The notes beneath the pieces are model-generated. The model was not told the DNA's origin and searched no databases. It saw nothing but the letters and a program-made list of their open reading frames with translations. A program made the position numbers and the translations under genes. A stretch of DNA of 64,000 nucleotides from a virus (Duplodnaviria > Heunggongvirae > Uroviricota > Caudoviricetes). Shown here piece by piece: positions 11,144-52,891 of the stretch; within the stretch, counting starts at the first letter, position 1, and every line of letters starts with the position of its first letter. The DNA lies in IMG/VR virus record IMGVR_UViG_3300048998_000119, positions 13,214 through 77,213 of that record. One strand, written 5' to 3'.

Positions 11144-11159
11144 GTTTATCTCGCTTATC

Positions 11160-11290: not shown

Positions 11291-11337
11291 GGGCTCTTAG
11301 GGCTAATTCAACGGGGTCTGGTAAGGGCGAACGATCG

Positions 11338-11400
11338 AAAAAAAAAAAAATTGGTGTAAAGATCCCCTCCCCACACCCAGCCCCGAAGGACCAAGCGTGA
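11338..11400 (-). terminator. putative terminator: GC hairpin CCCCTCC...GGAGGGG followed, after a 13-nt spacer, by T13
   Basis: read on minus strand downstream of lipoprotein gene stop at 11414; spacer longer than canonical. Confidence 0.4.
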
Positions 11401-11413
11401 GGAGGGGAGAAGG

Positions 11414-14203: not shown

Positions 14204-16156
14204 TCAGAACTGAATCACATAAGGACGACCGTCGACCTTGACCTTCACCTGCTCAGGCTTGGTGCTGGAGAAGCCCACACCCGACAGCTGTTCTTTCTGA
14301 TGCGGAGCACGCGACCGTGAGCCGAGAACCTCAAACACCTTGCGATGCTCGTTGAGTTCGGCCTTCAGGTACTCATTGTGAATACCCCGAACAGACTCAG
14401 GATTCTCCATTTCCTTCACAAAGAAGAAGACGTGGAGATTGCCCGTGCCTTCACCCCAGTAGTTCGGGCTGAGTGTGATCGCGTCGAGCTCCCGGTATTG
14501 GCCCAACTGGACGCCCCACTTGTCGACCTTGCGTCCACCCACCTGGACCGAGTTGTCGCCCGCTCCGTATTGGACGATCTGTCCGTTTGTAACTCGGAAG
14601 CTGGCGGTCGCGACCACCTCGTTGTGGCGCACCTCACGCGGGCAGTTGAACTTCAGCAGCGTGTCACCACACTCGACTTCAACCTCGAAGCCCACGTCTT
14701 TAACTTCACGGTGTGTGAAGTTGTGAACGCCCACACGATACTCACCGTCCAGCAACTTGCTGAAGTAGACGTTCTCCACGGCGTCTCGACGATCGCCGCT
14801 GACGTTCATGTCCACGTCGAGCTGACCGTATGAACCGATCGGCTTCTTCGCGGCGAAGTGGATCTTGATACCCTTGCTGTCCCAGACATGAAGATCAAGA
14901 TCGTCTGTGTTGAACCAGCTCAGACTGATGCGAAGCGGAGCGTCCACCTTGCCGCCCGCCTGCTTGACACGTTCTTTCACGCTGTCCGTGACGTCGCCGT
15001 CGTAGGACCAGGAGAAAGGATTGTCCCACTTGAAGATAGACGAGCCGGTGGTGAGCGTCATGAAGTTGCCCGGATGCTCGATCAGCAACTCCACCTTCTT
15101 CGCGCCAGGAAGAATGGTCTTCAGGAAGCTGTCGGCGTCGATCGTCTCACCGTCCTTCGAAGGCTTCTTCTTGTTGAACGCCACGCCCGCCATGAGCAAC
15201 TCCAGCGGGGAGTTGATGCGATCGTTGTTGGCGACGAACAACAGATGCTCCATTGGAATGTCGTCAATTGTGGCCATGCGACGCGTGACGTCCATACCCA
15301 TTTCCTCGATCTTGGCGAGCGCCGCGTCGATCTGCTTCTGCGACACCAACGACTTGGGCTTCTTGTAGTTGTTTGGATCCAACATACGACCGAACGCCTC
15401 AGCCGCCTCGTCTGGGTCACGCTTCATGGACTTGTTGTTCGGATCGTTCCATTCAGCTAATTCAATCAAGAACGTGCCGATGCTGACATTGCGTAGACCC
15501 GCCACACGTGTCTTCAAGTGCTTCCACACGAACGTGTCGGATCCATCATACTGACGCGCCAGATCCAAGAAGCCGGACACCTGAGCACGGAACTCGGCGC
15601 CGCGATACAGACGGTTCTCGTCGATCATTTCCAGTGCCTGTTGTAAGACAGCCGGAGTGAACTGGTCCAGACCGCGCTTGAACACACCGAACAGATTGTT
15701 CAGGTCGCCGCGTTCCTTCGATGGCTGAGACACCCTGTGCTTGACGACACGACCGAAGAAGTGATCGTACTTGATCGTGGGATCCTCCTTGTCGCGATTG
15801 GGGCCGGAACCGTAGCTCGCCTGATCGGTACGATACACGCCGGTGATTGGAGCCTGGCGCACTAGATCGCGAAGAGCGGTCGCCACGATGTTGTACGGCA
15901 TAGGCAAGTTCACGTCGTCCCACACGGTGTCGCCGTCGATTGTGCGCAGACGCCCGATATTGCGGATGAAGTTCTTGCAGCAGTTGCAGTTGTGCCAGGT
16001 GTTGACACGGTGGATCGGATCGGTGCCGATCGGGAAGGCGCTGAGATACTTATCCCAGATGTCGTCCACGTCAACCGTGTAGAGTTCCTGTGAGGACATC
16101 GCGTCCCACTTTGAGGCGACGCTCTTCGAGAAAGTTTGAAATGCTGTCATGGTCAC
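14204..16156 (-). CDS. large hypothetical protein (650 aa) with N-terminal Cys cluster HNCNCC
   Basis: long uninterrupted ORF; no recognisable family. Confidence 0.55.
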   Translation of the reverse strand: MTMTAFQTFSKSVASKWDAMSSQELYTVDVDDIWDKYLSAFPIGTDPIHRVNTWHNCNCCKNFIRNIGRLRTIDGDTVWDDVNLPMPYNIVATALRDLVRQAPITGVYRTDQASYGSGPNRDKEDPTIKYDHFFGRVVKHRVSQPSKERGDLNNLFGVFKRGLDQFTPAVLQQALEMIDENRLYRGAEFRAQVSGFLDLARQYDGSDTFVWKHLKTRVAGLRNVSIGTFLIELAEWNDPNNKSMKRDPDEAAEAFGRMLDPNNYKKPKSLVSQKQIDAALAKIEEMGMDVTRRMATIDDIPMEHLLFVANNDRINSPLELLMAGVAFNKKKPSKDGETIDADSFLKTILPGAKKVELLIEHPGNFMTLTTGSSIFKWDNPFSWSYDGDVTDSVKERVKQAGGKVDAPLRISLSWFNTDDLDLHVWDSKGIKIHFAAKKPIGSYGQLDVDMNVSGDRRDAVENVYFSKLLDGEYRVGVHNFTHREVKDVGFEVEVECGDTLLKFNCPREVRHNEVVATASFRVTNGQIVQYGAGDNSVQVGGRKVDKWGVQLGQYRELDAITLSPNYWGEGTGNLHVFFFVKEMENPESVRGIHNEYLKAELNEHRKVFEVLGSRSRAPHQKEQLSGVGFSSTKPEQVKVKVDGRPYVIQF

Positions 16157-17153: not shown

Positions 17154-17566
17154 TCTAATCTTTCCTCATGCGTCAATCGATATAACATGAGTAGTGTGTC
17201 TCCATGACAACGTTTCGGAGCACATAGACACAGCATGTTTTTACCGTCGAATTCTCGAAAATCTTGGTCTGCCACGTCTAGGTTAAGTAAACGGGTTGCG
17301 ATGTGCATAGCGTACTCGTCGCATACCTGATCACGCATCTTATCGTTCTTGATTGGTCTGTGGAGGGCCCATTTGGTGGGACGACCAATCCATTGAGACA
17401 GTCTGATCGCCGTGCGACTGCTGAAATGCTTGTTGATCACTTTGGTGTTGGTGGAAGTTTGATTCTTGGTTTCCCTCCGCATTCTCCCACCGCCGCCGAT
17501 CACTTCAACCAGTCTGACCATCGATGATCTTCGCCGTGTCCACATCCATGGTGAAGAAGCTGACAC
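17126..17566 (-). CDS. DUF4326-like protein (start uncertain)
   Basis: C-terminal motif NMLCLCAPKRCHGDTLL resembles the DUF4326 CxC(A)P..CHGD signature. Confidence 0.45.
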   Translation of the reverse strand: MSASSPWMWTRRRSSMVRLVEVIGGGGRMRRETKNQTSTNTKVINKHFSSRTAIRLSQWIGRPTKWALHRPIKNDKMRDQVCDEYAMHIATRLLNLDVADQDFREFDGKNMLCLCAPKRCHGDTLLMLYRLTHEERLEWAQSTLST

Positions 17567-22388: not shown

Positions 22389-22559
22389 ATTGGGTCGTTG
22401 GAAATAAGGGTTAATAAAACGGGGTCCGGTCTGAGTGCTCGCGTCGTGGTCGCCGTTACAAAGTTCCCGTTTGGGCCAACGCGAGTGCGTCGGGCGGGGC
22501 GGCGGAGGACGCGAGTGACCGGGGTCCGGGCGGCACACCGGACAGCATAATCATATCAG

Positions 22560-37862: not shown

Positions 37863-37941
37863 GTTATTCTCACTTGAAACCACATACAGACTTCTGTACG
37901 CGTAGACGGGATAATTAAACGGGTTCCCGTAACCCAAAGCA

Positions 37942-38304: not shown

Positions 38305-40596
38305 CTAGACAAAGCAATATTCTGAATCCAGAACAGCCCTGATGTCCAACGTGCCGTAAACTATTTCCGACGCGTCACCCTGGATGTCCTTCATCAGATT
38401 TTGAAGTGGATCCGTCTGATACAGTTCCACAAACGTTTCTCGCACAATCCTGAACAAGTCAGGCATGTCGGCCAACAGACAACCGAAACTGTCGTGAATG
38501 GTCGTGACTGCAAACGGAGCCTTGTCCACAGTCATCGCGAGGTGAGCGGCGTCCAGAGAGTGAATACAGTTTGGACTTGCACCCGAAGCCTGCTTACCCT
38601 TTGAATGCTCAGTGTCTTCGATGAACGAAATGTTCAGCTGCAGCGTATTCTGATAGTAGCCGCTGAGCTTTCTCTCACCCAACGGAGGACCGTACTGGAT
38701 CCACCGCTTTTTGACTTTACCTTGGGTGTAGTGCTGGACGACCGGGAAGTTTGTTACGGGAACAGTCCAGCTCAAGAACCGCCCCTCCTCCTCAGCCTTA
38801 CGTCCGGCTTTCTCGAAGATCGACAGTAGCTGCATAGGCTTGGTGAGTGACAACTGAGCTGCCTCAAAGATGAGACGACCCATGTACGCACCCCACTTAT
38901 GTTCCATATACAGCAATAGTTCGATGCCGTGCTTCTTGGCGTCGTCTATCACCTGCTGTCCGAGTCCGTACGCGGTGCCGCCATACGGCAGTGTCATCAC
39001 ACCACGTTTCATCACCTTACGCCTGTCCTTGGCGCTGGTGAGTCTAGACCAGAAGACAGTAGAGGCGTCGTTGTTCAACTCCACATTGTCTTCTTTATAC
39101 GCTTTGATCTGTTCAACCAATTCCGCCCTACGGTCGCTGCTTGGTTCAGCCGCCGTGATTTGTTTCTTCAGTTCAATCAGATTGTCGATGAAGCGATTAA
39201 TCTCGTTCAGTCGCTCCTTGCTGAAGTCCGTCAGTCGGTCGACGATGATTCCCCAGACATAATCCGCCACAAAGCGATAGAGATCGCCCGGAAGCTCAAG
39301 CGGAACCAGATTCACGTGTGGCGCCGTGGTCTCGTCTCTGACCAACGCAGTCAGATGCTGTGAACCATTGTTAGAGCCGTCGATGAAACATTCCAGCGAA
39401 GATTCATAATCCGTTGGATCGCCGTGCTCAAGCGCTTTCCTCAACTCCAAACAAGCCGCCAAGAACTGCCACGGCTTATCTGCGTCCATCCACCCTTGAT
39501 TTACTTTAGGGGATTCGGCGTAAGATAAAATGATTTCAATGTTGTCTCGTGTCCAGGCTTCTCTGGCGTCGAGCGGGATTTTATCTGTCTTAAGACCATC
39601 GTCTCTGCCGGAGTTTCCGGCCCACGTAGAAGCGATGCTAATAAGTAGCCATCGGAATCCGGCCTCTCCGATAGACTTTGAATCGCTCCGGAGTAGGAGT
39701 CCGCGAGCGACGTCAGTGCCTTGTTCATGGAGATACGCTGTTGTGGGGTATTTGCGACCTCTAAAGTCATAATAATATAGATGATAAAACTCCTTGTCCA
39801 AGAAGCGTTTCGCCATACCGCTGATGGCTCGGGCTTCACGAAGTTTTGTTTGACGAGCCTGGGGGTTGCGTTGTTCCCAGATGTCGCTGAAGGCGTTTGT
39901 CTTGTTTCTCAACGCCCACAGCTGAAGTTCGTAAACCTCTTTGTTCACACGCCAACCGACTCGCTGCGCTTTGTTGATGCAGTTAAACAGAATCGGATGG
40001 GTGTCGGGCTGAACTGCGGCGAAGACTTCCTTGTTGCCGGTCTTGATCATGTAGTTGCCGGTCTCGTGCCTGGAGGCGATCCAAGGCGCGTACGCTGTTT
40101 CAGAAGGAAGCTTTTCTATGCGTTCATTAGGGATACTTTCCCAGAGAGCGATGATGCCCTCTTCGTTGTTGATCTGAATCATATATGCGTTGTGGTTCTT
40201 GTTACCTTGACCCAGCAACACCGTTAACAACTGCAGTTGTTCAAAGCTGAAGACGAAGAACGCGCCCACCTTAGCCGCCAAGGAAGAGTCGCGTTTGATC
40301 TTGTTTTTGTTCAGAATGTTGTGACCGATGGCGGCGATCACTTCTGTTAGATACACAGTCTTGTTCACACCCTTCTTCATACGGGTGTACAAGTACAAAG
40401 TAGTTATGGCTGCGTCGATACAACCCTCCAGGTCCACATCGCGCAGGAATATAAGAGGACTCTGCGGTGCGATCTCTCGCATAATGCGGTCATAGAGAAG
40501 TTGTTTCAGTTCTGATCTCATCCAAATAATATCCATGACAGAAGATCTAGACCGAAGTATAAGACTAGGAGTACGGCGACGACATACGAAGTGCAA
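38305..40596 (-). CDS. single-subunit DNA-dependent RNA polymerase (T7-like)
   Basis: motif A FIDGSNNGSQHLTAL, motif B RRKVMKRGVMTLPYGGTAYGLGQQV, motif C IHDSFGC; true start may be ATG at ~40536. Confidence 0.8.
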   Translation of the reverse strand: MHFVCRRRTPSLILRSRSSVMDIIWMRSELKQLLYDRIMREIAPQSPLIFLRDVDLEGCIDAAITTLYLYTRMKKGVNKTVYLTEVIAAIGHNILNKNKIKRDSSLAAKVGAFFVFSFEQLQLLTVLLGQGNKNHNAYMIQINNEEGIIALWESIPNERIEKLPSETAYAPWIASRHETGNYMIKTGNKEVFAAVQPDTHPILFNCINKAQRVGWRVNKEVYELQLWALRNKTNAFSDIWEQRNPQARQTKLREARAISGMAKRFLDKEFYHLYYYDFRGRKYPTTAYLHEQGTDVARGLLLRSDSKSIGEAGFRWLLISIASTWAGNSGRDDGLKTDKIPLDAREAWTRDNIEIILSYAESPKVNQGWMDADKPWQFLAACLELRKALEHGDPTDYESSLECFIDGSNNGSQHLTALVRDETTAPHVNLVPLELPGDLYRFVADYVWGIIVDRLTDFSKERLNEINRFIDNLIELKKQITAAEPSSDRRAELVEQIKAYKEDNVELNNDASTVFWSRLTSAKDRRKVMKRGVMTLPYGGTAYGLGQQVIDDAKKHGIELLLYMEHKWGAYMGRLIFEAAQLSLTKPMQLLSIFEKAGRKAEEEGRFLSWTVPVTNFPVVQHYTQGKVKKRWIQYGPPLGERKLSGYYQNTLQLNISFIEDTEHSKGKQASGASPNCIHSLDAAHLAMTVDKAPFAVTTIHDSFGCLLADMPDLFRIVRETFVELYQTDPLQNLMKDIQGDASEIVYGTLDIRAVLDSEYCFV

Positions 40597-40652: not shown

Positions 40653-40949
40653 TTATCCTATCTTATTGAGCTCACTCCAGAGCTTTTCCAATTTTGCCTG
40701 ATTCAGATCCCTCTGATCGGGCGACACTCCGGCGATGTTCTCGTCCAGAATGTCATTCACTTCTTTTTGTTTTCTGCTGATTACTTGCTGATCTTTTTTC
40801 GCGGTCCTGACCTGGGCGAGTCCGTCGGCGATGTCCAAGAAGTCTTTAAAGGGGAGCATACCTCGTAACAGAGCACTTATAAAACCGGTCAAGGAATTCT
40901 TGCGCTGCTTTTTCCGGGGACCAGAGGGCGAAGGGAATGTCGATGTCAT
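40653..40949 (-). CDS. hypothetical protein (98 aa)
   Basis: ORF track. Confidence 0.35.
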   Translation of the reverse strand: MTSTFPSPSGPRKKQRKNSLTGFISALLRGMLPFKDFLDIADGLAQVRTAKKDQQVISRKQKEVNDILDENIAGVSPDQRDLNQAKLEKLWSELNKIG

Positions 40950-41379
40950 AGACTCTCTCGATGTCGGGGTAAAGGAACGTCTCCTCCTGATGGAACAGAA
41001 GGTTGTCGACCAGCTTAAACGTCATTTCGTCCGGTTCTTCGAACGCGAAACGATACTCCATATCTCGCATGATACGATGCTCAGTTGCCTTAAAGGAATC
41101 AGCGTCCCTTTTAAGAGGCGTGATGAGATCACCCATAACAAACTCAGGAGCATCGTGCAGGAGAGCACCTTTACGATTACGAGGATACAAGTCATGAGCA
41201 TGACAGCAGTGCTCCGCCACAGAGTAATGATGGACGACGTGGTCGCCGAAACGACACTTCTTGCCGAGCATTTCCGCGACGAATTCAATGTCGTAGATCG
41301 CAGTTTCAGGCTTTGCGAAGTCGAAGATGTGATTGTTCATCATTCGTAGACCGTTGCTGAACTTGACGCTTTCTTGCAC
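40846..41379 (-). CDS. HD-domain phosphohydrolase (YfbR-like 5'-deoxynucleotidase)
   Basis: YSVAEHCCHAHDL ... ALLHDAPEFVMGDLITP; GTG start after GGAGG. Confidence 0.65.
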   Translation of the reverse strand: MQESVKFSNGLRMMNNHIFDFAKPETAIYDIEFVAEMLGKKCRFGDHVVHHYSVAEHCCHAHDLYPRNRKGALLHDAPEFVMGDLITPLKRDADSFKATEHRIMRDMEYRFAFEEPDEMTFKLVDNLLFHQEETFLYPDIERVYDIDIPFALWSPEKAAQEFLDRFYKCSVTRYAPL

Positions 41380-41391
41380 GTGGACCTCCGG

Positions 41392-41470
41392 AAAAAAAAA
41401 AAAAAATAGTGAGTTATGGTTCAGAAGAAGGACACCCCAGAGAAACGCCCGAAGGCGTCTCCCTGAGGTG
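41392..41470 (-). promoter_or_regulatory. 14-bp hairpin (with G-U pairs) followed 30 nt later by T16 immediately upstream of the HD-gene RBS
   Basis: minus strand: CTCAGGGAGACGCC-ttcg-GGCGTTTCTCTGGG ... T16 CCGGAGGTCCACGTG. Confidence 0.35.
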
Positions 41471-42582: not shown

Positions 42583-42600
42583 TTCTCCTTTTGAGGTTCT

Positions 42601-42632
42601 CTCATATAAGATACCTCTTTTTCCGCGTTTTC
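42601..42632 (-). promoter_or_regulatory. conserved 32-nt element copy 1 (minus-strand sense GAAAACGCGGAAAAAGAGGTATCTTATATGAG)
   Basis: near-identical copies at 44270-44300 and 50721-50752. Confidence 0.6.
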
Positions 42633-42859
42633 TTTCGGTGGTTTCGGCGCATACCGCTTACGCCACCGATAGGACGACTGCTGAGAATTATTGGACAAAG
42701 CTGCTGGTGGGCTTGCGACCCAGCAACGTGTCGGCCTCGTTCTGCACCTTGACGGTGTTGTAGAGTTTACCGGCAGCGTTGGCGTGTGCATCCAACATCT
42801 TCACGTCGATTTTACCCAAGTCAAGATCCTGCATACGCTCCGCCAAGAACGCGGCGACA

Positions 42860-43474
42860 TCATCGAGCTTTTTCATTATATAGTTTCCTTCTAACCGCTA
42901 GTAATTGACGTTTTAATTCTATGAATGCAGTAGGCACGTCCTTTTTACTGTTTAAATTTAGATCGGTACAAATCCTACGTTCAACATAGGTATCGGCAAG
43001 AAATAGACGTTCTAAAGAGGAACGATATTCTGTACGGGCAGCGGTGTCCCTCCCTCTCTCGTTACGTCTCGCACAACCACGTCGAGCACGTCGTAATCTG
43101 ACAATGTCAGCCGTGTACCGTCCGTAGCAGCTAATACACAAAGTTGTGTAGTTATATCGTGGTACTGTTGCCCACGTGCAATGACAGTGATCGCAACGAG
43201 GTCTAGGCGGAGTTTCATGGACGGGTGGTTTATAGTCTACACGCTTGGCTCGACATTTACGCACCACTTCTTTTCTCACTTCGGGTCCGCAATCTCGACA
43301 ATAAAATACATGCGAAGGCCCTTCAGCAATTGATATATTGCAACGCTTGCATTTACGAGCTAATCGTCTCTTTTCACTCCTCTCATTTTGAAAACATGTT
43401 CTACAACGACTTGTGCAAGTCTTATAGAACATGGTGACATCTTCTGTGCGACAGAAGACACAGCTGTACTTCAC
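42860..43474 (-). CDS. Cys-rich multi-zinc-ribbon protein (204 aa)
   Basis: >20 Cys in CxxC pairs. Confidence 0.45.
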   Translation of the reverse strand: MKYSCVFCRTEDVTMFYKTCTSRCRTCFQNERSEKRRLARKCKRCNISIAEGPSHVFYCRDCGPEVRKEVVRKCRAKRVDYKPPVHETPPRPRCDHCHCTWATVPRYNYTTLCISCYGRYTADIVRLRRARRGCARRNERGRDTAARTEYRSSLERLFLADTYVERRICTDLNLNSKKDVPTAFIELKRQLLAVRRKLYNEKAR

Positions 43475-44256
43475 TTAATATTGACGAGCGACCCGCCGGT
43501 GCCCTGGACGAACGTGCAGTTCTTGTTTCCGCAGACGGATTTCAGCGTGTCCAACGTGCGAAGCTGAACGAACTGATCTGCATTCAGACCCAGACCATTC
43601 TGGTAGGCTCGATCCGCTTCGGCGCGCTTGGCTTCTGCGTTTTTGCGCTGCTCTTCAGCCAACACAGTCTTCTGCATCGTCAGCACACGCTGTTCCTGAG
43701 AAGCCGTGGCGATGCGCTGATCCTTCACAGAATCAGGCGGATTTGCCCGACCAATAGTGAACCGAACGAGTCGCACAGGGAACTTGTTCCGGGCGAAGTA
43801 CTGTTCCAGCCGTTCCGAAACTTCGGCATCGATCGAGGCTGCGGCGGTAGTGCTGATGGCCGTCTCGTTCAGACCATGCTTCTTGACGGCGTCGCGGATG
43901 TACGACAGCAGTTCGGTGCTGATGTTGTTGTCGTACCAGTTCGAGCCATAACGCTTGACGAGCGCGACCGAGTCGGTGACCTGCGTGACGACAGAAGCGT
44001 CGAAGTCCAGAGGTACACCGTCGCTGGTCATCAGATCGTTTAGCTCAAGCTTGTGCTGCTCCGGCTGCATGTTGACGGTGATCGCACTAGTCGACCAAGC
44101 GACTAGTTCGGTGCCCTTGACGGGAGTGTCGAACACACCGCCCGAGCCGAAGAACCAGGGCTTTGCGTTGAGAACTTTTTCCTCGTTGGGCTCAGTACTC
44201 ACGTAGGAGCAAGCCGAAGTGGCGAACAGAAGCGAGAGAAGAAACATATTTTTCAT
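43471..44256 (-). CDS. SPFH (band-7/HflKC-like) lipoprotein
   Basis: lipobox LLFATSAC; RLVRFTIGRANPPDSV and Ala/Glu/Gln-rich AEEQRKNAEAKRAEADRA tail typical of SPFH C-termini. Confidence 0.5.
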   Translation of the reverse strand: MKNMFLLSLLFATSACSYVSTEPNEEKVLNAKPWFFGSGGVFDTPVKGTELVAWSTSAITVNMQPEQHKLELNDLMTSDGVPLDFDASVVTQVTDSVALVKRYGSNWYDNNISTELLSYIRDAVKKHGLNETAISTTAAASIDAEVSERLEQYFARNKFPVRLVRFTIGRANPPDSVKDQRIATASQEQRVLTMQKTVLAEEQRKNAEAKRAEADRAYQNGLGLNADQFVQLRTLDTLKSVCGNKNCTFVQGTGGSLVNIK

Positions 44257-44269
44257 GATGGAGTCCTTT

Positions 44270-44300
44270 CCATATAAGATACCATTATTTCCGCGTTATC
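44270..44300 (-). promoter_or_regulatory. conserved 32-nt element copy 2
   Basis: GATAACGCGGAAATAATGGTATCTTATATGGAAAG immediately 5' of the SPFH gene. Confidence 0.6.
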
Positions 44301-44604
44301 AATGATCGTAATAACCACGAGCACGTCGTCGGGCAGCTTCCAGAATTCGCTCGGCGCCCGCTTCACCCATAGCCGCATACTCATAGAGTGTCGGTTGAAT
44401 GCCGTTACTGTGAGCAGACAGCTGACTCACCGTGCCGCTGGGCTTGATGGTCTTGACGCGACCTTTGTTACAGATGGTTTGAAAGACTTTCTTCCAACCC
44501 ATTCCGTAACTGAGGCCGAACGCCATATTCTTGGCCACCTTGTCGCCACCGAAGAGGACCAAGGTGAGCGCGGCCAATTTCCAGAAGAAATTCTTCATGC
44601 TCAT
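44299..44604 (-). CDS. hypothetical membrane-associated protein (101 aa)
   Basis: ORF track. Confidence 0.35.
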   Translation of the reverse strand: MSMKNFFWKLAALTLVLFGGDKVAKNMAFGLSYGMGWKKVFQTICNKGRVKTIKPSGTVSQLSAHSNGIQPTLYEYAAMGEAGAERILEAARRRARGYYDH

Positions 44605-44927
44605 ATGTCCTCGACGATTGCGTCGCCCACAGACGCCACGCTGGTCAATTCGAATATACCGATGCGAGGTCTCGACGAACTGACCATCTTTGCAGCCGCG
44701 ACTTGCGCGGACATCTTGTTGGGATACAGAGTTGATGACAGATAGGGAAAGGTGTGCAGCGGGTGATTATCTTTGGTGACACCCAGAATGATGAAGCTCA
44801 TAGTACCTCCGATGAAATCATGACATAGTTTGGACCGGCGTCCTTGAAGGCGGTTTCGGTGAGCACCGCAATGTTGTCACCTTTCAAGGTCACCGTCATT
44901 TTGCCGGGCTTGTTGACCCGAACAAAC

Positions 44928-45371
44928 TTAAATCTTATTCGCACGACGCATCCGTGCCACGCCTCCCAACGCCAGGAAGCCGACGGTCATTGCGCCCCAG
45001 GTGGCCGTCTCCGGGACCGGGGTGATGAGACCCTGCCCGCCGCCGCCGTGCCCAACTCCGCCTCCACCTGGGAAGCCACCGCCTGAGCCTGCACCTCCGC
45101 CGCCCACAAAACCGCCGCCACCGGAGCCGAAACCACCGTAGGAGAACTCGCCGCCAACGCTATCGGGCAGCGGGCAAAGAGCCAGATTACTCTCGATCTT
45201 GATGTCGCGAACTGGAGGCTCGTCGAAGACTTCCTTATGAGCCGTTTGGTTGATGTGGTGTTTGACCACAGCGATGCCGTGATTTATTTTGGCGTGATAG
45301 TGGTGAGTCGCGATTGGAGCCACCACAACGCAAGATAGTAGAACACCTTTGCTGAGCAAGTATTTAAGCAT
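44928..45371 (-). CDS. secreted Gly-rich protein with PEP-CTERM-like C-terminal sorting signal
   Basis: signal peptide; GGFGSGGGGFVGGGGAGSGGGFPGGGGVGHGGGG; C-terminus PVPETATWGAMTVGFLALGGVARMRRANKI. Confidence 0.45.
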   Translation of the reverse strand: MLKYLLSKGVLLSCVVVAPIATHHYHAKINHGIAVVKHHINQTAHKEVFDEPPVRDIKIESNLALCPLPDSVGGEFSYGGFGSGGGGFVGGGGAGSGGGFPGGGGVGHGGGGQGLITPVPETATWGAMTVGFLALGGVARMRRANKI

Positions 45372-45373
45372 GT

Positions 45374-45661
45374 CTAATCCTCTGAAAAGAGTTCCTGCAG
45401 GGTCCGTTCTGGATCCCAGCCAACTTTACGCTTTACTTCTTTCCCGTTGTGCATCAGCACAAGAGTGGGTACACCTCGCACGTCAAAGCGATGTGCCATC
45501 AGTGGTTGCTCGTCGACGTCTGACACCAACAACTCGATGTCATTTCGCTTACGAGCTTCCTCCAACGCGGGTTTCGCGGGCAACGCCCAAGACGCCCAGA
45601 ACAGCAACAACTTGTCGCCGGTGTCCAGGAGATCTTCGTTTGCTTGAGTGAGTTCGATCAT
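45374..45661 (-). CDS. thioredoxin-fold protein lacking the CxxC active site
   Basis: FWASWALPAKP aligns to Trx FWAEWCGPCK; RGVPTLVLMHNGKEVKRKVG aligns to Trx [20 protein letters not shown]. Confidence 0.55.
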   Translation of the reverse strand: MIELTQANEDLLDTGDKLLLFWASWALPAKPALEEARKRNDIELLVSDVDEQPLMAHRFDVRGVPTLVLMHNGKEVKRKVGWDPERTLQELFSED

Positions 45662-46152
45662 CGTTTCACCTTCAGACCAGCGGCGCTGAGTTTGGGCTTG
45701 GGAGCCTCCACAGGCTTTGCCTCTTCAACACTGACGGTCTCGATCAGGTTCTTCTGACCATTCATCTGCTTGGAGGCACCGGAGAGAGCGTCCTGCAGCT
45801 CGACCGCAGTCCAGACTCCTTGGTACTCACCATCCGACACAGTGACTTTGAAGCTGCCGTCCGGACATTCTGAGTCGGGAGCGACAACCTCAATCACCAG
45901 AGCACGTTCTTGACGCAGCAGACGAAGAGAGTCGCCGAGCGCGTTGATCTTGTCGCGATCGCTGAGATCTTCATTCGCCTCAAACTCGGCGTCGATCTTA
46001 ACCTGCAGCAACCACCACTTAGTTCCGCGATAAAGTTCTCTGGCTTCCTCCAGAAGTTCTTTCGCTCGGCTTTTTGTTTTGTGACCGGTGAAGGTTCCGG
46101 CCCTGACGATCGCCCAACCCGCGCCGTCTTTGGGTTTAAGAAACGGGGTCAT
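45658..46152 (-). CDS. hypothetical protein (164 aa)
   Basis: ORF track. Confidence 0.45.
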   Translation of the reverse strand: MTPFLKPKDGAGWAIVRAGTFTGHKTKSRAKELLEEARELYRGTKWWLLQVKIDAEFEANEDLSDRDKINALGDSLRLLRQERALVIEVVAPDSECPDGSFKVTVSDGEYQGVWTAVELQDALSGASKQMNGQKNLIETVSVEEAKPVEAPKPKLSAAGLKVKR

Positions 46153-46517
46153 CGACGATTGGCGCTGGACACAACCAGCTTCCCATCGTGTTTCGTCCGA
46201 ATCTTTTCCATAATGTCCGGCTGCTCGATGCGGCGCAGTTCCCGTTCGAACAACTGTTCGGGCGAGGCGCCTGTGACAGCGAAGTAAGCCGCCAGAGTGG
46301 TCAGCACACCACCGATCTCTTGACTGGTGACGCCGGGAGGTTTGGCGTAGACCTGCTCGATAAGCGCGAGCGCCTGTTCTTTTGTGACGCCTTCAACTTG
46401 ACCGAGTTCGATGCTTTCTTCCAAGAAGCGTAGCACACGCTCCTCGACGTCCATACAACGATTGCCGAAGCAATTGCGAATCCACTTGATTAAGCGGAGA
46501 GGTTGAAAATCAAGCAA
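46149..46517 (-). CDS. MazG-like nucleotide pyrophosphohydrolase
   Basis: RFLEESIELGQ ... EIGGVLTTLAAYFAVTG. Confidence 0.45.
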   Translation of the reverse strand: MLDFQPLRLIKWIRNCFGNRCMDVEERVLRFLEESIELGQVEGVTKEQALALIEQVYAKPPGVTSQEIGGVLTTLAAYFAVTGASPEQLFERELRRIEQPDIMEKIRTKHDGKLVVSSANRR

Positions 46518-46728
46518 GACGATACACTCCCACCCAAGCCACCACTGCGTAATACAGTAGTGTAGACCAAGCGATGAGCACCGCGCCGTTCCAGAGAAGT
46601 AATCCGAAGACTATCCCCAACAACGTGGTGCAAACTTCCGAAATTGCAACTGTCCCCGCCGCCATAATGATTGCGCCGAAGAGCAACCCGGCGAACGACA
46701 GTACAGTCAATAGAATTGCGATGAACAT
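46510..46728 (-). CDS. small polytopic membrane protein (~73 aa, trimmed)
   Basis: MFIAILLTVLSFAGLLFGAIIMAAG... Confidence 0.35.
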   Translation of the reverse strand: MFIAILLTVLSFAGLLFGAIIMAAGTVAISEVCTTLLGIVFGLLLWNGAVLIAWSTLLYYAVVAWVGVYRLA

Positions 46729-46729
46729 T

Positions 46730-46999
46730 TTATTTACTCTTTTCCGCAAGGAGTCTGTCCGTGTAGCCGTGGTTGTAGGCGTGACAGATGCTGATGACGA
46801 CGAAGGCGAGCTCACGGTCTGGGACTTGGTGAGACACAAAGTAGGCAAGTGTGTACTTGCTTTGGTAGTCCCGTGTGTACGGGATGCATACCTTCTCCAC
46901 CGCTTGTTGTTCGAGTTCCAGGGTGCGGACTTCGACGTGACCATTGGATTCTTTCGGCAGGAGGATTGAAGATGCGGCGAACAGCAGAATACCGATCAT
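46730..46999 (-). CDS. small secreted protein (89 aa)
   Basis: N-terminal signal-like MIGILLFAASSILL. Confidence 0.35.
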   Translation of the reverse strand: MIGILLFAASSILLPKESNGHVEVRTLELEQQAVEKVCIPYTRDYQSKYTLAYFVSHQVPDRELAFVVISICHAYNHGYTDRLLAEKSK

Positions 47000-47168
47000 T
47001 CGGTGTCTTCCTTTATGCAGTGAGAAATCATCATGTTCTCGTTTCGAGCGTGGAGCTCGATGAACGAACGGCGGGCGACTTCACAGATCTTGCGACTCGA
47101 GAAGTCTTGGATCTGCTGGCTGCAGACGTTGGGTTGCATGCAGATCATGACGAGAAATCCAAACATGG

Positions 47169-47552
47169 CTAATCCTTTTTAAAATGTTTCTGAATACGGT
47201 CGCAGAGTTCAAGTGTCATTCTGTCGTCCTGAGTCGTCACAATCTCGGGTCGACTTTTCTTCAGCTGACGGCTGAGCCATTTATCTTCGGCGATTGATGT
47301 CTCTAATGTTCGATACTGATCAAGATAAACTGAACTCACTTTGCTGTCGCGAGTCAGTTGTATTCTGACGCCGGAGTCATGCAAGAGCCACGAATCTGTT
47401 CGTTGCCAGCCGGGACTGAAAAGAAGCTTGCCGATAAGTTCAACACTCTGACGACGGCGCTGTAAGTAGCCCCCATTTATCAAGAAAGGAGAGCCAAAAC
47501 AGATGGTGAGGCCGGTGGCTACTACCACCAGGAAGAATATAAAGTCAAACAT
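47169..47552 (-). CDS. membrane protein (127 aa)
   Basis: N-terminal TM helix. Confidence 0.4.
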   Translation of the reverse strand: MFDFIFFLVVVATGLTICFGSPFLINGGYLQRRRQSVELIGKLLFSPGWQRTDSWLLHDSGVRIQLTRDSKVSSVYLDQYRTLETSIAEDKWLSRQLKKSRPEIVTTQDDRMTLELCDRIQKHFKKD

Positions 47553-47937
47553 CGGTCATCTTACTCCGCAAGAGTTTTGCGGCGTCGCCCGCCTTGTCGG
47601 GACGCACAATCAAGTGCTTGACGCGACGATATAGCCACTTCTTGTCGCCTTTGGTTAGCTCGATTGCGTAGCCGGGTATATCTACGCCTCTGATCTTTTC
47701 GTAGTCGTAGTCGAGAGCAATCTCGACACCGGTTGCGGTATGCTTCAAGTAGCGGCCTTCCATAAACCAACCATTTATAGCCGCAATCTCACCGATAACC
47801 GCTAACGCGGGATCCTTGCGTTCACCGTAGGAAGCGAAGGGTCGCACGCCGTCGACCATCCACGACAGCAAGACGACCATGAGCACCGCTCCACCGATAC
47901 CGAGTGCGGAAGCGAGAAGAAATTGAATTACAATCAT
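47545..47937 (-). CDS. membrane protein (130 aa)
   Basis: N-terminal TM helix. Confidence 0.4.
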   Translation of the reverse strand: MIVIQFLLASALGIGGAVLMVVLLSWMVDGVRPFASYGERKDPALAVIGEIAAINGWFMEGRYLKHTATGVEIALDYDYEKIRGVDIPGYAIELTKGDKKWLYRRVKHLIVRPDKAGDAAKLLRSKMTDV

Positions 47938-48164
47938 TACAGTACCTCACAAGTTTCGTTGAAGAGCGCTTCGGCGAGATCCAGCTTAGTGCCATGCTTG
48001 ATGAGGTGATCCTCCAGTATAAGCTTTATGTCCAGAATCTGTCGGATGTCTCGGTTTGCTCTGAAAGTGACTTTCTCTCGGTTGAGCCAAACGAAGAAGA
48101 CCAGCGGATGATCGGTGGTGTGAATGCCCGCGAACAACCACTCTTGAATGATACGTTCCGTCAT
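47937..48164 (-). CDS. hypothetical protein (75 aa)
   Basis: ORF track. Confidence 0.35.
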   Translation of the reverse strand: MTERIIQEWLFAGIHTTDHPLVFFVWLNREKVTFRANRDIRQILDIKLILEDHLIKHGTKLDLAEALFNETCEVL

Positions 48165-48742
48165 ATGTTCAACTCCTTGAGCTGCAGGAGACGCTTTACG
48201 ATTTGATCTTCCGTGAAACGATCGTACAGACCGTCCAGAGAAGGAGTCTCACGTCCGTCGCCCGGTTGAAAGGCGCGGGTGCTCGCCCAGGTCGGCAGCT
48301 TGTCGGCGAATTGCGTCAACAGAAGAACGGTGTCCGTGTCGACGACGATGCTGTGGATCTCCGAGGCGTGCTGATGGTACGACTCACCTTCCTTGTGCAG
48401 CATGCTGGACTCGATCGACAGCAGTGTTTCGCGCTTCCAGACGAAACCGGAGCCGCCGTTGAGCGGTGTCTCGTAGTCGAATTCTTGGAAACGCGTGTGG
48501 CGAGGATCACCCCAGCCACTTTTGTATTTGTTGTTGCGAACTTCTCCGGCCAATACCGTGGTGGAAAAATCATAACGATGATCGTGCGGCACGACGATTT
48601 CGGCGTCGGTCTTCAAGTTGTCGAAGAAGTAAGCTTTGATCGTCAGCGTATCCGAACGATGCAGACAGATGTAGTCGAGTCCTTTCGAGTGGAAGTTGCG
48701 GAAGCTGTTGGCGGCGATGGTTTCGACGTCGTCGTATCTCAT
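48161..48742 (-). CDS. putative cupin-fold / 2OG-Fe(II)-oxygenase-like protein
   Basis: VPHDHRYDF (HxD) and HQHASEIHSIV. Confidence 0.35.
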   Translation of the reverse strand: MRYDDVETIAANSFRNFHSKGLDYICLHRSDTLTIKAYFFDNLKTDAEIVVPHDHRYDFSTTVLAGEVRNNKYKSGWGDPRHTRFQEFDYETPLNGGSGFVWKRETLLSIESSMLHKEGESYHQHASEIHSIVVDTDTVLLLTQFADKLPTWASTRAFQPGDGRETPSLDGLYDRFTEDQIVKRLLQLKELNI

Positions 48743-49227
48743 TTGGCGTATCCTTTATAGTGATTGAGAAAGTTTCCGTGAAAACAATTTTCGCTGAACC
48801 CTGACGGAACGCCGTGGTCGAGAAAAAAGTAAATACGTTCGGCCGCACCCTTGGCGGTGTTGTCGAAATGGGACCACATACCGCCGAACATCCACGCGAA
48901 CTCAGATGAAATCGCATCGCTGCCTTCGGAAAAGACTGGACAGAAGTTACGTTCGCAGTAAGCACTCCAGTCTATAGTGCTGCCGGGAAAATCACTGTCG
49001 ACCGCCAGAAAACCAGCGCTGGGACCGTGACCAACTGCGCAGGCGACGGCACCACAGTTGTGCACACCACCGTTCTCGCGAGCGTATTTATTTCTGATCT
49101 CAAACTCTCGTCCCCAGAGACCATCCTCGACCACGCTGAAGTAAGAACTCATATTGAAGCTGTCGTAGTTCTCGGGAAGCTCAAAGAGATAGTCGGCGAG
49201 CGTCTTGAGGTTGCCGCGATTAACCAT
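48739..49227 (-). CDS. tandem paralog 1 of unrecognised family (CGAVACAVGHGPSAGF motif)
   Basis: start trimmed to MVNRGNLKTLADYL; shares three blocks with paralogs 2 and 3. Confidence 0.6.
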   Translation of the reverse strand: MVNRGNLKTLADYLFELPENYDSFNMSSYFSVVEDGLWGREFEIRNKYARENGGVHNCGAVACAVGHGPSAGFLAVDSDFPGSTIDWSAYCERNFCPVFSEGSDAISSEFAWMFGGMWSHFDNTAKGAAERIYFFLDHGVPSGFSENCFHGNFLNHYKGYAK

Positions 49228-49675
49228 TGTAGATCTCCACGAATGCACGATAGGAATAACCCTTGAAGACTTCCGGCACACCGTGCTCGAGATAGTAGTT
49301 GATGCGCTTGGCGGCACCATGAGGTGTGTTGTCGCAGAAAGACCAGAATGAACTGAACATCCACTCGAACTCGCGCGTGTTGTTGCCATCTTCGTCGCGC
49401 ACATCGCAGAAGAGACGATGAGTGTACACATCCCAGTGGACTTCCACGTCGTTGAGTTCATGTTCCTGAAACAAAAAACCCGCCGAAGGACCATGACCCA
49501 CAGCACAGGCCGCAGTTCCACAACGCGAGACTCCACCGTTGTTCAGTGCGTAGTCTCGTTCGTCGGCGGGAGTGTGGGCGTAGAAGAAACCCGCCATGTC
49601 GAATTCGGCGTAGTCTTCCGGCAGCGTGAGCAGGTAGTCGGCGAGCTTCTTGAGGTTGTCGCGGCGGTTCATGCG
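49220..49675 (-). CDS. tandem paralog 2 of unrecognised family
   Basis: start trimmed to MNRRDNLKKLADYL; CGTAACAVGHGPSAGF; HGAAKRINYYLEHGVP. Confidence 0.6.
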   Translation of the reverse strand, partial: RMNRRDNLKKLADYLLTLPEDYAEFDMAGFFYAHTPADERDYALNNGGVSRCGTAACAVGHGPSAGFLFQEHELNDVEVHWDVYTHRLFCDVRDEDGNNTREFEWMFSSFWSFCDNTPHGAAKRINYYLEHGVPEVFKGYSYRAFVEIYNG

Positions 49676-50151
49676 ATGTACTCCTGATAGATGGGGACAT
49701 AATAACGAAAGCTTTTGCAAACGTCGAAACTCTCCGGCACGCCATTTCTCAGATAGTAGTAGATGCGTGCGGCGGCTCCGTGAGGTGTGTTGTCGTAAGG
49801 CGCCCACCTACCGCCAAACATCCAGCTGAAAGCATTGGCAGCTTCTGGGCTGAAGCGACGACCGACGATGAAGTTGGCGTAGGTATATTCCGGCCACATC
49901 ACTCCACCGCCTTCTGAAATGAACTCTTCGGTAAAGAGAATACCGGCGGTAGGTCCGTGACCAACCGCGCAAGCCACGGCTCCGCACGCGCCCACACCGC
50001 CGTTGTGTAGAGCATACTCACGTTCCACTGAGGTGTGAACACCCTCCATGAAAGATATCATGTTGAAATGTTCGTAGTCCAGCGGAAGCGCCGACAGATA
50101 ATCGGCGAGCTTCTTGAGATTTTCACGCTTGTCCATCTTGGAGCCTTTCAT
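49669..50151 (-). CDS. tandem paralog 3 of unrecognised family
   Basis: MDKRENLKKLADYL; CGAVACAVGHGPTAGI; HGAAARIYYYLRNGVP. Confidence 0.6.
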   Translation of the reverse strand: MKGSKMDKRENLKKLADYLSALPLDYEHFNMISFMEGVHTSVEREYALHNGGVGACGAVACAVGHGPTAGILFTEEFISEGGGVMWPEYTYANFIVGRRFSPEAANAFSWMFGGRWAPYDNTPHGAAARIYYYLRNGVPESFDVCKSFRYYVPIYQEYIA

Positions 50152-50395
50152 AGTTGTCGTAGATGTACTCAGCCATTTGCATGAGATTCAGCGCGGACTG
50201 CTTGGTGAGGAAGCGAATGAAACAAAACGGTTCGGCGTTAATCTCGATTGTGTCGGCGTTCTCTTCCGTGATCGGTTCGTCGCCTTTGACGGCGTGGAAT
50301 GTGATGCAGGGAAACTTATCTTCATCCCAGTTGGGCACCATAGCGAAACGACCGGTGCCGATTTCTATTCCAGGAATAACCATCTGAATTTCCAA
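50123..50395 (-). CDS. hypothetical protein (90 aa)
   Basis: ORF track; preceded by stem-loop element. Confidence 0.4.
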   Translation of the reverse strand: MEIQMVIPGIEIGTGRFAMVPNWDEDKFPCITFHAVKGDEPITEENADTIEINAEPFCFIRFLTKQSALNLMQMAEYIYDNYERLQDGQA

Positions 50396-50428
50396 TTTTT
50401 AGGAGGAAGCTTTTTACGGCTTCCTCCA
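50388..50428 (-). promoter_or_regulatory. stem-loop + A-run + RBS module, copy B
   Basis: minus: GGAGGAAGC-cgtaaaaa-GCTTCCTCC TAAAAATTGGAAATTCAG ATG. Confidence 0.4.
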
Positions 50429-50587
50429 GGATTAATTAGGCGTACGCGAGGACAAGCAACCGAAGCTGATGTTCGGTGTAGTCCAGGATGCGACGATGAA
50501 AGTTTTCGGCGGCGGCGCGATAACCACGACGCTGCATTCCATCGACGATCTGCTGATAAGCTTGTTCGAGTTCCATACCAAATCCTT

Positions 50588-50695
50588 TTATCCAGAGCAT
50601 CGGCGATTGGCCTTTTCGCAGGCGTGGAAAAACAGAATGACCACCGGAGTGGCCACAGCAGAAAGCATACCGTAGTAGCCGATCACGGTGAACAT
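50588..50695 (-). CDS. small hydrophobic peptide (35-45 aa)
   Basis: own translation MFTVIGYYGMLSAVATPVVILFFHACEKANRRCSG; in frame with the ATG of conserved element 3. Confidence 0.3.
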   Translation of the reverse strand: MFTVIGYYGMLSAVATPVVILFFHACEKANRRCSG

Positions 50696-50720
50696 TATAT
50701 TTCTCCTGAGAGATGATCCT

Positions 50721-50752
50721 CTCATATAAGATACCTTATTTTCCGCGTTTTC
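50721..50752 (-). promoter_or_regulatory. conserved 32-nt element copy 3
   Basis: GAAAACGCGGAAAATAAGGTATCTTATATGAGAG; first intergenic region after the lysis cassette. Confidence 0.6.
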
Positions 50753-50863
50753 TTTTGACGAAAATTTGCAACTTAGGGTTGACGATCAGACGACGTGTGG
50801 CGCGTCTCAGCAAGTGAGAAGACAGTTCATCCGCTTCCAGATGGAGTGCGTCCTCAAGCCGGG

Positions 50864-51172: not shown

Positions 51173-51380
51173 GGGTGGTCTCCACTACTCGATCGCCTTC
51201 AGCGTCGGTTGAAATTCTATTCTGAGTCGTCTCGACGGCGTCTTCGCCGGACAGTATAGCGCCCGTGGCGATGTTGCCGTCCAGATGAGCTTGATCGCTC
51301 TTTGAGCCGCCGCATGTCGCCATCAGAAATATAGCGATGACGGCTATGACCACCATGGCGATTGTGATGTATTTACTCAA
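51054..51380 (-). CDS. i-spanin (Rz-like)
   Basis: N-terminal TM IAMVVIAVIAIFLMA, periplasmic remainder; directly downstream of endolysin. Confidence 0.5.
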   Translation of the reverse strand: MSKYITIAMVVIAVIAIFLMATCGGSKSDQAHLDGNIATGAILSGEDAVETTQNRISTDAEGDRVVETTRVQVQSAKDAHGVNTAGRSGLCALAGYSGSPECVLKTNP

Positions 51381-52069
51381 CGAATTACCTCCAAAGCTTT
51401 CTTGCGCTTGGCTTCTACTTCGGCCAGACCGATGAGGCCACCGTTGATCGAGCGTCGAGCGCCCTTGAGATCAGCCATATCCACATAGTCGAACGTGTGC
51501 TTGCGCAACATGAAGTCACAGGCGGCAACCAGCGACTTGGCCGGATCCGCGACATCGTCTGGATCGAAACCCAGATTCAGTTTGAGAACGAGATACTCAG
51601 CTGCTCCGGTGTGTTGGAGCATTCCTCGACCACGGTTTTCCCAGCCGTGGCCCTGATTTCCCATGCGATTTCCGTATACAAGATTTGCGAGGGCAACATC
51701 CTCCCTATCTGGATCAGTCGGATCCCAAGAATAGGGTGCCGCAGAAGCCAGAGTAGGGAATCTAGTTGGCCAAATTTGTGTGAGACGTTTTGCACTGTAG
51801 TGGAGGTTCTCTTCAAAGCGAGTCCAACCGCCGGACTCATTACTCGTTTCACCGAGGAATTCCGCCAACCGCATAGGGGTGTCGACCTTATACTTGGGGA
51901 ACGAGATTACAGCCTGCGCGCCGATTGCTCGGAGTATCGCGTCGGGTTGACGTCCGGCGACGTAACCGAACAGCATGGCGTAAGTTATCTTACCGGCCAC
52001 ACCGTCGATTGCACCGCAGGGGAATTTTGCGTCAGTCAGATTTTGTTGGGTTTTCGTCCAATTTATCAT
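51377..52069 (-). CDS. endolysin, glycoside hydrolase family 19-like
   Basis: LAEFLGETSNESGG (GH19 catalytic Glu region) and NLVYGNRMGNQGHGWENRGRGMLQHTG. Confidence 0.7.
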   Translation of the reverse strand: MINWTKTQQNLTDAKFPCGAIDGVAGKITYAMLFGYVAGRQPDAILRAIGAQAVISFPKYKVDTPMRLAEFLGETSNESGGWTRFEENLHYSAKRLTQIWPTRFPTLASAAPYSWDPTDPDREDVALANLVYGNRMGNQGHGWENRGRGMLQHTGAAEYLVLKLNLGFDPDDVADPAKSLVAACDFMLRKHTFDYVDMADLKGARRSINGGLIGLAEVEAKRKKALEVIR

Positions 52070-52370: not shown

Positions 52371-52432
52371 AAGGATAACTCACTATGATGATTACTCCAA
52401 GGAAGGAATCTAAGGGAGCGCCCATCGTTAAT

Positions 52433-52891
52433 TCAACGGGATGGATGATGCCGAGTCGGCCAAACCAAACGACCCGAAGCGACAGGCGTCCAGCCATCTT
52501 TTTCAAGCACTCGCTGGAACACACTCTGGTTATGAAGCGTACTGCTCGTCACCGCGATGTGGAAACCCTTCTTCTCAACCCACTCTCTGAAGTCTCTGTG
52601 GAAGTCACGTAACTCGTGAACAGCCTTGACGCCAGTAATGTTTGAGTGATAATAGATTTGACTGACCGCTCGAATCGGTGAGTGATGATTGCCGTGGCCT
52701 TCTATAGCCATCATCCAACCATGCTCACCGATCTTGAAGTACCGTCTATCCGCGATTGCTTGATTCAGGAAAGCTCTAAAATGAACTCGATCGTGTGGAA
52801 AGAATTCATCGTTGTAGCGTGCGTAGAGATCTTCGGACAGATCACAAATCCATCCGAAGTCTGATCTCTTAGCTTGTCTGTAAGTACCCAT
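52433..52891 (-). CDS. hypothetical protein (152 aa)
   Basis: ORF track. Confidence 0.4.
   Translation of the reverse strand: MGTYRQAKRSDFGWICDLSEDLYARYNDEFFPHDRVHFRAFLNQAIADRRYFKIGEHGWMMAIEGHGNHHSPIRAVSQIYYHSNITGVKAVHELRDFHRDFREWVEKKGFHIAVTSSTLHNQSVFQRVLEKDGWTPVASGRLVWPTRHHPSR

Follow-up and report, generated by a model that had tools for sequence, protein, structure and literature searches.

The 64,000-nucleotide stretch of a Caudoviricetes virus analysed here (positions 13,214 to 77,213 of IMG/VR record IMGVR_UViG_3300048998_000119, hereafter the window) covers most of a phage genome of more than 64 kb, about 10-15 kb of which lies outside it, and every gene in the window is on the minus strand. 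Along the direction of transcription, tail genes (tape-measure-like, J-like and a GH5 tail spike) run from about 64k to 52.4k, and are followed by a small-gene region from 52.4k to 41.5k, which begins with an endolysin-like gene and contains all three copies of a conserved element, here named E. After this region come a 17-bp hairpin with a run of 15 Ts (T15), a gene for a deoxyribonucleoside 5'-monophosphate (dNMP) phosphatase, and the gene for a T7-type single-subunit RNA polymerase, to which all E copies in the window are upstream. Past the polymerase gene lie replication and nucleotide-metabolism genes, a second hairpin with a T13 run, and the terminase and portal genes. The nearest isolates were the roseophages DSS3_VP1 and DSS3_PM1, whose polymerases are 32% identical to that of the window. 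In the Naomviridae, the nearest isolates including DSS3_VP1, deoxythymidine is replaced by deoxyuridine (dU) in the DNA. The positions of E, of a second motif named M, and of the features around them are collected in Table 1.

The composite pattern AACGCGGAAA-N4-GGTATCTTATATG had three exact matches in the window, all on the minus (sense) strand, with 0 expected by chance. The pattern AACGCGGAAANNNNGGTATCTTATATG was found exactly at 42603-42629, 44271-44297, and 50723-50749 on the same strand, and had 0 matches in 100 dinucleotide-preserving shuffles. This confirmed the initial annotation, made by a model from the letters of the sequence, in which a 32-nucleotide (nt) element was reported as conserved three times on the sense strand, the conserved stretch being slightly longer than the limits given there. 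No further copy was found in the window at up to 7 mismatches in 23 positions, the 14-nt core of E with up to 3 mismatches gave no additional copy near gene starts in the window, and no other motif of at least 13 nt repeated three times was found in it. The distance from the G of the conserved ATG in E to the downstream start codon was 21, 15, and 28 nt for copies 1, 2, and 3, in line with the spacing of 15-30 nt given in the initial annotation. The three downstream genes encode a membrane peptide, an SPFH lipoprotein, and a small hydrophobic peptide as had been claimed, and each has its own Shine-Dalgarno (SD) sequence.

Table 1. Positions of E, M and neighbouring features in the window (aa, amino acids).
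Feature	Position	Strand	Context
E copy 1	42600..42634 (approximate)	minus	21 nt before the 61-aa membrane peptide gene; ~2 kb upstream of the RNA polymerase gene
E copy 2	44268..44302 (approximate)	minus	SPFH lipoprotein gene begins 15 nt downstream
E copy 3	50720..50754 (approximate)	minus	First E along the direction of transcription; 1.7 kb past the early-region M copy
61-aa membrane peptide gene, N-terminal hydrophobic segment	42397..42582	minus	Downstream of E copy 1
SPFH/Band_7 gene, lipoprotein-type signal	43471..44256	minus	Downstream of E copy 2
35-aa hydrophobic peptide gene	50588..50695	minus	Downstream of E copy 3
Stem-loop ATGGA-aaggac-TCCAT	44258..44273	minus	From E position 25
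Stem-loop TGAGAGG-atca-TCTCTCA	50707..50724	minus	From E position 26; SD GGAG directly after; one of the 55 distinct downstream hairpins
M, early-region copy, CCCGTTGAATTAACGA	52425..52440	minus	Before the first E
M, CCCGTTTAATTATCCC	37908..37923	minus	Just past the polymerase module, 46 nt before a gene syntenic in relatives
M, CCCGTTTTATTAACCC	22408..22423	minus	
M, CCCGTTGAATTAGCCC	11300..11315	minus	After hairpin and T13 run, before the terminase operon
Weaker M-like sites	17280-17295 and ~46132-46147	minus	
T7-type single-subunit RNA polymerase gene, 763 aa (start approximate)	38305..40596	minus	Pfam RNA_pol, E-value 2.6e-72; T7 RNA polymerase alignment; C-terminus ...DSEYCFV
17-bp hairpin and T15 run	41392..41470	minus	Between the last E and the polymerase module; same composite directly 5' of relatives' polymerase genes

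The exact E pattern occurred in 25 IMG/VR stretches and in at least 120 metagenome stretches. Among the matches listed, 173 distinct copies were obtained from IMG/VR and metagenome contigs spanning 29-66% GC, a set collected on the 11-nt core alone, with the GCGGAAA block not being a requirement. Positions G16-G27 were invariant in these copies and positions 15-28 invariant or nearly so (G27 in 173/173 copies, A/G28 in 169/173), each position of the upstream block G4 C5 G6 G7 A8 A9 A10 was kept in 85-96% of them, and positions 12-14 were free. The two blocks are held one helical turn apart by the fixed 4-nt spacer. Positions 1-3 and the A/T-rich flank were lost in GC-rich relatives, the AT-rich core was retained across 29-66% GC, and the AAC of the upstream block was not conserved in the wider set.

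Twelve relatives with enough upstream sequence (polymerases 50-64% identical) carried 1-3 copies of E each, all on the gene strand and always 0.8-4.9 kb upstream of the polymerase gene. Downstream of that gene, no E was found within about 12 kb in the 12 relatives, nor in the 40 kb that follow it in the window. In the family as a whole E was always on the gene strand, usually 25-56 nt before an SD-bearing start codon (15-28 nt in the window). E was absent from about 50 ordinary T7-like marine contigs retrieved by the same polymerase query, and was confined to contigs of the window's polymerase clade. The motif search in the phage and its relatives, proposed as a check in the initial annotation, placed every E among the small genes that precede a T7-type polymerase gene. 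Comparison of the region with isolated phages by megablast gave no match, and a 39-nt E query against isolated phages gave chance matches only, for example within a structural gene of a Cellulophaga phage. E was rejected as a host-genome motif, since its 16 matches in bacterial genomes were mostly one unrelated conserved coding sequence plus chance. A literature search with the motif strings found nothing relevant, and the Naomviridae paper contained no promoter analysis. E is a phage early promoter-like element of extremely conserved and unusual grammar, recognisable in two phage families, which is not described in the papers and databases searched.

Hairpins lie on both sides of E. Upstream, 12 of 56 copies were located 6-20 nt past a hairpin followed by a T-run, with several unrelated hairpin sequences, and in a larger set the starts of upstream hairpins peaked at -30 to -21. 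Where such hairpins and T-runs precede E, transcription would have to restart at E. Downstream, a stem-loop of at least 5 bp started at E positions 23-30 in 63 of 159 copies, compared to 20-33 of 159 in downstream control windows, and the starts peaked at positions 26-28 when every start still pairing at least 5 bp was counted. The downstream hairpins, 55 of them distinct, were unrelated in sequence (TGAGAGA/TCTCTCA, GAAGGGCTCC/GGAGCCTTTC, and TATGATAATC/GATTATTATA, for example) and were followed by the SD, and their outermost base fell at E position 24 in 10, 25 in 7, 26 in 13, and 27 in 7 cases. Fold z-scores across copies 1, 2, and 3 of the window were -2.5, 0.1, and -0.8, those of copies 2 and 3 not being significant. 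A conserved fold including E itself was not found, the hairpins in most copies lying beside the element and not across it, and the covariation check of the 'aagtacaataaggtacc' hairpin subfamily gave only one possible compensatory change. The succession of terminator, conserved block, stem-loop, SD, and gene suggests an independent transcription unit with an RNA start near the conserved ATG, and the same layout could also be that of a processing site between two protective hairpins.

Of 56 copies of E, 22 have a complement to the core further downstream. Inverted partial cores were observed 10-12 nt from an E, in a downstream form GGTATCTTAT-N10-ATAAGGTACC (L003, L009-L014, L024 and others) and, in L174 at 373-408, with the inverted core upstream, CATATAAGATAC-N12-GTATCTTATATG. 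These pairs could form hairpins of 12-14 bp in read-through RNA or in single-stranded DNA.

The conserved ATG was at first thought to open an upstream open reading frame (uORF) of possible regulatory function. Within the window the geometry was as claimed, with uORFs of 8 and 6 codons ending in ATGA in copies 1 and 2, and an ATG in frame with the downstream gene in copy 3, and these copies are what favours reading E as the source of a leader peptide or regulatory uORF, or as a device for translational coupling through the ATGA overlap. The comparative data contradict it, however. In 54 family instances the uORF ranged from 2 to 38 codons and the frame of the gene start relative to the conserved ATG was near-uniform (22/16/16), with 10 in-frame fusions, 10 uORFs entering the gene out of frame, 27 stopping earlier, and 7 abutting or overlapping the start, 6 of which (6/54) did so as ATGA. 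The conserved ATG was not preceded by an SD, and every downstream gene had its own. Judged from this variation the uORF is incidental and not conserved across the family, so that a leader-peptide switch or translational coupling through it is unsupported and deserves next to no credence.

Repeat searches of the relatives also surfaced motif M, (A/C)CCCGTTAAATTAACCC(T/C)T, with the core GTTAA-A-TTAAC. A copy of M, which carries a C-run extension, precedes the first E in every relative examined, by 19-1746 nt in all cases but one, and another copy in the relatives lies 2.9-4.4 kb after the polymerase start, with a syntenic gene 33-62 nt further on. M-like sites in the window had 6 sense-strand matches compared to 0.32 expected, and were found on the sense strand only, at module starts. 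No stem-loop peak comparable to that of E was found after M, so the signature is specific to E. A sigma70 promoter was rejected as an explanation of M, since a properly spaced TAnnnT accompanies just half or so of the early-region copies and is missing from all the others. M has CGTTAAA in common with the T7-like promoter of DSS3_VP1, and is probably the promoter of the phage single-subunit polymerase. On the map drawn from these positions, M marks the middle and late modules and E marks the early cassettes.

The isolates allowed E to be compared across a larger distance. In DSS3_VP1 (L108/L109) and DSS3_PM1 (L111), ATAGGGTGCGTTAAAGAGGGG is present 12 times, always on the gene strand, with no copy between 29.4k and 45.9k and none in the early region. 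Aligned in register, 12-13 of the 23 positions of this motif agree with the T7, T3, and SP6 promoters (p ~0.02-0.035), and it is taken to be the phage-polymerase promoter of DSS3_VP1 and DSS3_PM1. Both phages also carry at three sites an E-like element, VP1-E, GGCATCTATAATGA; the positions of the two motifs in DSS3_VP1 include 2333, 7408, 19202, 19237, 29396, and 45926. Two E-like copies open the small-gene region that precedes the polymerase gene, the first of them past a terminator, and the third lies past another terminator, before a gene outside the early region. Thus 2 of 3 sites have an upstream terminator placed as at some E copies, and one copy is then followed by a hairpin from the same position. 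In register, 21 of 34 positions agree between E and VP1-E (p=0.002; cores GGTATCTTATATGA and GGCATCTATAATGA). They differ in the upstream block, both in sequence and in spacing, and the VP1-E core contains a perfect TATAAT, whereas the window E has TATCTT. The feature tables of the DSS3_VP1 and DSS3_PM1 records list no promoter features, and the E-like element is not annotated there.

The polymerase specificity loop, taken as the stretch that aligns with T7 residues 739-770, has 12 more residues in the window family than in DSS3_VP1. By hand count the window loop is 11 residues longer than that of T7, and the DSS3_VP1 loop is near T7's length. Despite this 12-residue indel, the window family and DSS3_VP1 both have GG(T/C)ATC at -12 to -7 (+1 being the G of the conserved ATG), the stretch expected to change with the loop in promoters of T7-type polymerases. 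Each family has its own putative phage promoter whereas E is common to both, which makes the phage polymerase an unlikely reader of E. Within the family, E and M were too invariant for a comparison of specificity loops to discriminate. The loop lies at about 38400-38600 in the window (polymerase residues ~630-675), and the family skeleton is QYGPP.G.R..TGYY.NT.QL..CF.E.

E is thus conserved, holds a single position and orientation, has a terminator on its upstream side and a hairpin on its downstream side, is absent from the middle and late regions, and stays constant across differing specificity loops. From this pattern we infer that transcription starts at E and which enzyme reads it. With moderate confidence, we consider E to be a promoter of the early class that gives its transcripts a stem-loop leader and is read by the host RNA polymerase. 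It would act as a one-orientation DNA signal at which transcription of the early-gene cassettes begins, with the start around the conserved ...TATATG-R at positions 25-28. A start there means that the mRNA would open with the stem-loop, followed by a short leader carrying its own SD, and the conserved ATG would belong to the start region without serving as a start codon. The reader would most likely be the host RNA polymerase, which a conserved phage protein might assist or, later on, block. The single-subunit enzyme of the phage probably uses M as its promoter and is an unlikely reader of E.

Several observations are consistent with this explanation. E stands at the heads of units upstream of the polymerase gene, in the early region only and often past terminators. 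In the relatives the polymerase gene is preceded by a hairpin and T-run only, without a promoter-like motif (in L038 the T-run ends at the SD), and since it lacks a promoter motif of its own it probably depends on transcription from the early region, an indication of the host enzyme, as in T7. A -10-like TATCTT is located at E positions 17-22. A conserved G precedes it by two bases and positions 28 and 30 are purines, a context compatible with a -35-independent bacterial promoter. The initial annotation had seen no resemblance to a sigma70 -35/-10 promoter, which is correct for the -35 box, with TATCTT as a -10-like sequence.

The early promoters A1, A2, and A3 of T7 offer a parallel, as they too are a few gene-strand copies at the start of or within the region upstream of the polymerase gene, presumably driving it, and phiOL lies just upstream of the first A promoter as M lies just upstream of the first E. 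The A promoters, however, have canonical -35 and -10 boxes and little else in common, whereas E lacks a -35 box and keeps about 20 bases invariant across phages of 29-66% GC and two phage families. Early promoters of phages such as T4 and T5, whose conservation reaches past the hexamers, can be more conserved than those of their hosts. Extended -10, -35-independent bacterial promoters share with E the -10-like TATCTT, the conserved G two bases upstream, and the absence of a -35 box, but the T of their TG motif is not conserved in E, and the invariant discriminator and start region of E and its GCGGAAA spacer block have no counterpart in them.

Other observations weigh against reading by the host polymerase. 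A -35-like hexamer at 16-18 nt from any of three candidate -10 positions was found in none of 56 copies, the best matching at most 4/6, and the GCGGAAA block would fall in the spacer, a part of the promoter that sigma70 is not known to contact specifically. The 13 invariant bases through the start region far exceed what sigma70 needs and resemble a promoter of a single-subunit polymerase, and TATCTT of E and TATAAT of VP1-E are 4 nt apart in the shared frame. Many hairpins reach T24-T26, which a bacterial start 6-8 nt after TATCTT would leave untranscribed, and the downstream complements of the core suggest that the core is sometimes transcribed. In sigma70 and terminator consensus scans of the whole window, sigma70-like sites were not enriched and E was not called. 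By hand check, none of sigma54, sigma32, extracytoplasmic function (ECF) sigma factors, sigma28 spacing, and T4 MotA-box geometry fitted E.

The main rival is that E is an RNA processing or stability signal, the part of an initial suggestion of processing or translational coupling that has been kept, and we regard it as unlikely. The early polycistronic RNA would be cut in a conserved single-stranded segment, for example UAU/AUG, with the upstream hairpin shielding the preceding mRNA at its 3' end and the downstream stem-loop shielding the following one at its new 5' end. The layout of hairpin, conserved unstructured block, and hairpin fits such a site, and the outer hairpin boundaries at 24-27 coincide with AU/AUG, which also fits in part the RNase E preference, RN/WUU. 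The downstream core complements and the one upstream inverted core in L174 imply a transcribed core, in read-through RNA at the least. The known sites of host RNases have modest sequence requirements, however, and at least 20 invariant bases with a fixed 4-nt spacer point towards a sequence-specific protein. The upstream hairpins carry T-runs like those of true terminators, so that RNA often would not reach E, and no conserved structure includes E and no Rfam match was found. The RNase III sites of T7, which like E are repeated between early genes and associated with hairpins, are long hairpins conserving structure, whereas E is a conserved linear sequence beside a variable short hairpin. The phage polymerase named in the initial annotation is a distinctly unlikely reader of E, although the promoter-type function proposed with it remains the best supported. 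With +1 at the G of the conserved ATG, E shares with the T7, T3, and SP6 promoters a contiguous conservation through the start (-12 to +2), a C at -7 (and, as in T7, a T at -8, the residues aligned to T7 R746 and Q758 being kept), an AT-rich melting region from -6 to -1, a G at +1 with a purine-rich start like that of SP6, and a 5' stem-loop near +1, as in T7 late mRNAs. It matches the T7 promoter in register at 11 of 23 positions by hand count, as many as SP6 does, and is present only in contigs of this polymerase clade. Unlike those promoters, E is found only before the polymerase gene, with 0 copies downstream of it where M occupies those positions, has an extra block at -23 to -17, and is nearly unchanged between families that differ by the loop indel. 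In addition, the phage promoter of DSS3_VP1 is a clearly different, 12-copy motif, and the polymerase gene would need its own product for expression.

We give little weight, as improbable, to E being an operator at which a conserved phage DNA-binding protein switches the early cassettes, overlapping a minimal -10-only host promoter. Conservation well past the needs of the host polymerase, the two blocks one helical turn apart, and the inverted partial cores 10-12 nt away at some loci all suit a binding site, but the inverted copies are both head-to-head and tail-to-tail so that no single dimer geometry fits, most copies lack a second half-site, and no candidate regulator was identified. A nut-like antitermination signal, in which a boxA-like sequence and a boxB-like hairpin allow read-through of the terminators before the polymerase gene, is highly improbable. 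E is indeed a linear conserved block with a variable hairpin immediately after it, the loop of which is often A-rich, terminator-like hairpins follow ahead of the polymerase gene, and UAUCUUA of E resembles the boxA core, UCUUUA. However, boxA positions beyond UCUU(A) are unmatched, the hairpin loops vary, and E copies located past terminators would be untranscribed unless antitermination came first. Rather unlikely, in turn, is an early start mode that uses neither canonical sigma70 recognition nor the phage T7-type polymerase, in one of three forms: a conserved phage factor delivered with the DNA, a polymerase encoded outside the window, or an unusual -35-independent binding by the host polymerase. 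Such a mode would be common to the window family and the Naomviridae, with hosts of very different GC, and might be linked to modified DNA, dU-DNA being known in DSS3_VP1. For a virion polymerase as the reader of E no evidence was found, the 1261-aa protein being J-like and DSS3_VP1 gp018 fibre-like. The promoter of the N4 virion polymerase, a giant enzyme, has a 5-7 bp stem and a 3-nt loop, whereas the invariant part of E has no internal inverted repeat. No giant virion polymerase was found in the window, which leaves about 10-15 kb of the genome outside, the large virion proteins examined being fibre-like or J-like, and a conserved 650-aa protein of the window has no obvious polymerase motifs.

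The genes and repeats around E and M were also described. The 650-aa protein is encoded at 14204-16156 on the minus strand (PHROG 1735, E-value 4e-179), without a Pfam or PDB relative, and DSS3_VP1 gp032, which is preceded by the third E-like site, is its presumed counterpart of similar size. The dNMP phosphatase, of HD type, is encoded at 40846-41379 minus (PHROG 318, E-value 6e-34), immediately upstream of the polymerase gene. The endolysin-like gene at 51377-52069 minus (PHROG 181, E-value 2e-37) has the early-region M copy on one side and the first E on the other, which places it on the early side of the map, comparable to the cell-wall hydrolase gene in the small-gene region of DSS3_VP1. 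Within the early region, at 48739-50151 minus, there are three paralogous genes in tandem, which repeat every ~465 bp and share 65-79% DNA identity.

A composite of a strong hairpin, a gap of 9-26 nt, and a T-run of 10-15 lies directly upstream of the polymerase gene in L026, L027, L035, L038, and L039, and occurs twice in the window on the minus strand, before the dNMP-phosphatase/polymerase module (Table 1) and at 11338-11413, ahead of the M site that precedes the terminase operon. Possible roles for the composite are termination, RNA processing, or enhancement of translation as a U-rich element. Four near-palindromes AACCTnnAGGTT at 11157-11273 minus, shortly before the same operon, surround a sigma70-like TTGACT-18-TAAGAT (11186-11157), an arrangement that looks like a regulated late promoter with operator sites. 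No tRNA was found in the window, and no Rfam 15 match at gathering score anywhere in it.

These results make the transcription map of common uncultured siphophage-like phages, with tape-measure-like and J-like tail proteins and a T7-type polymerase, readable from sequence. E fits no known promoter grammar, and its reader would be either an unusual recognition by the host polymerase or a new phage factor. DSS3_VP1, which is in culture, carries an E-like element. E and M are candidate portable, orthogonal expression signals.

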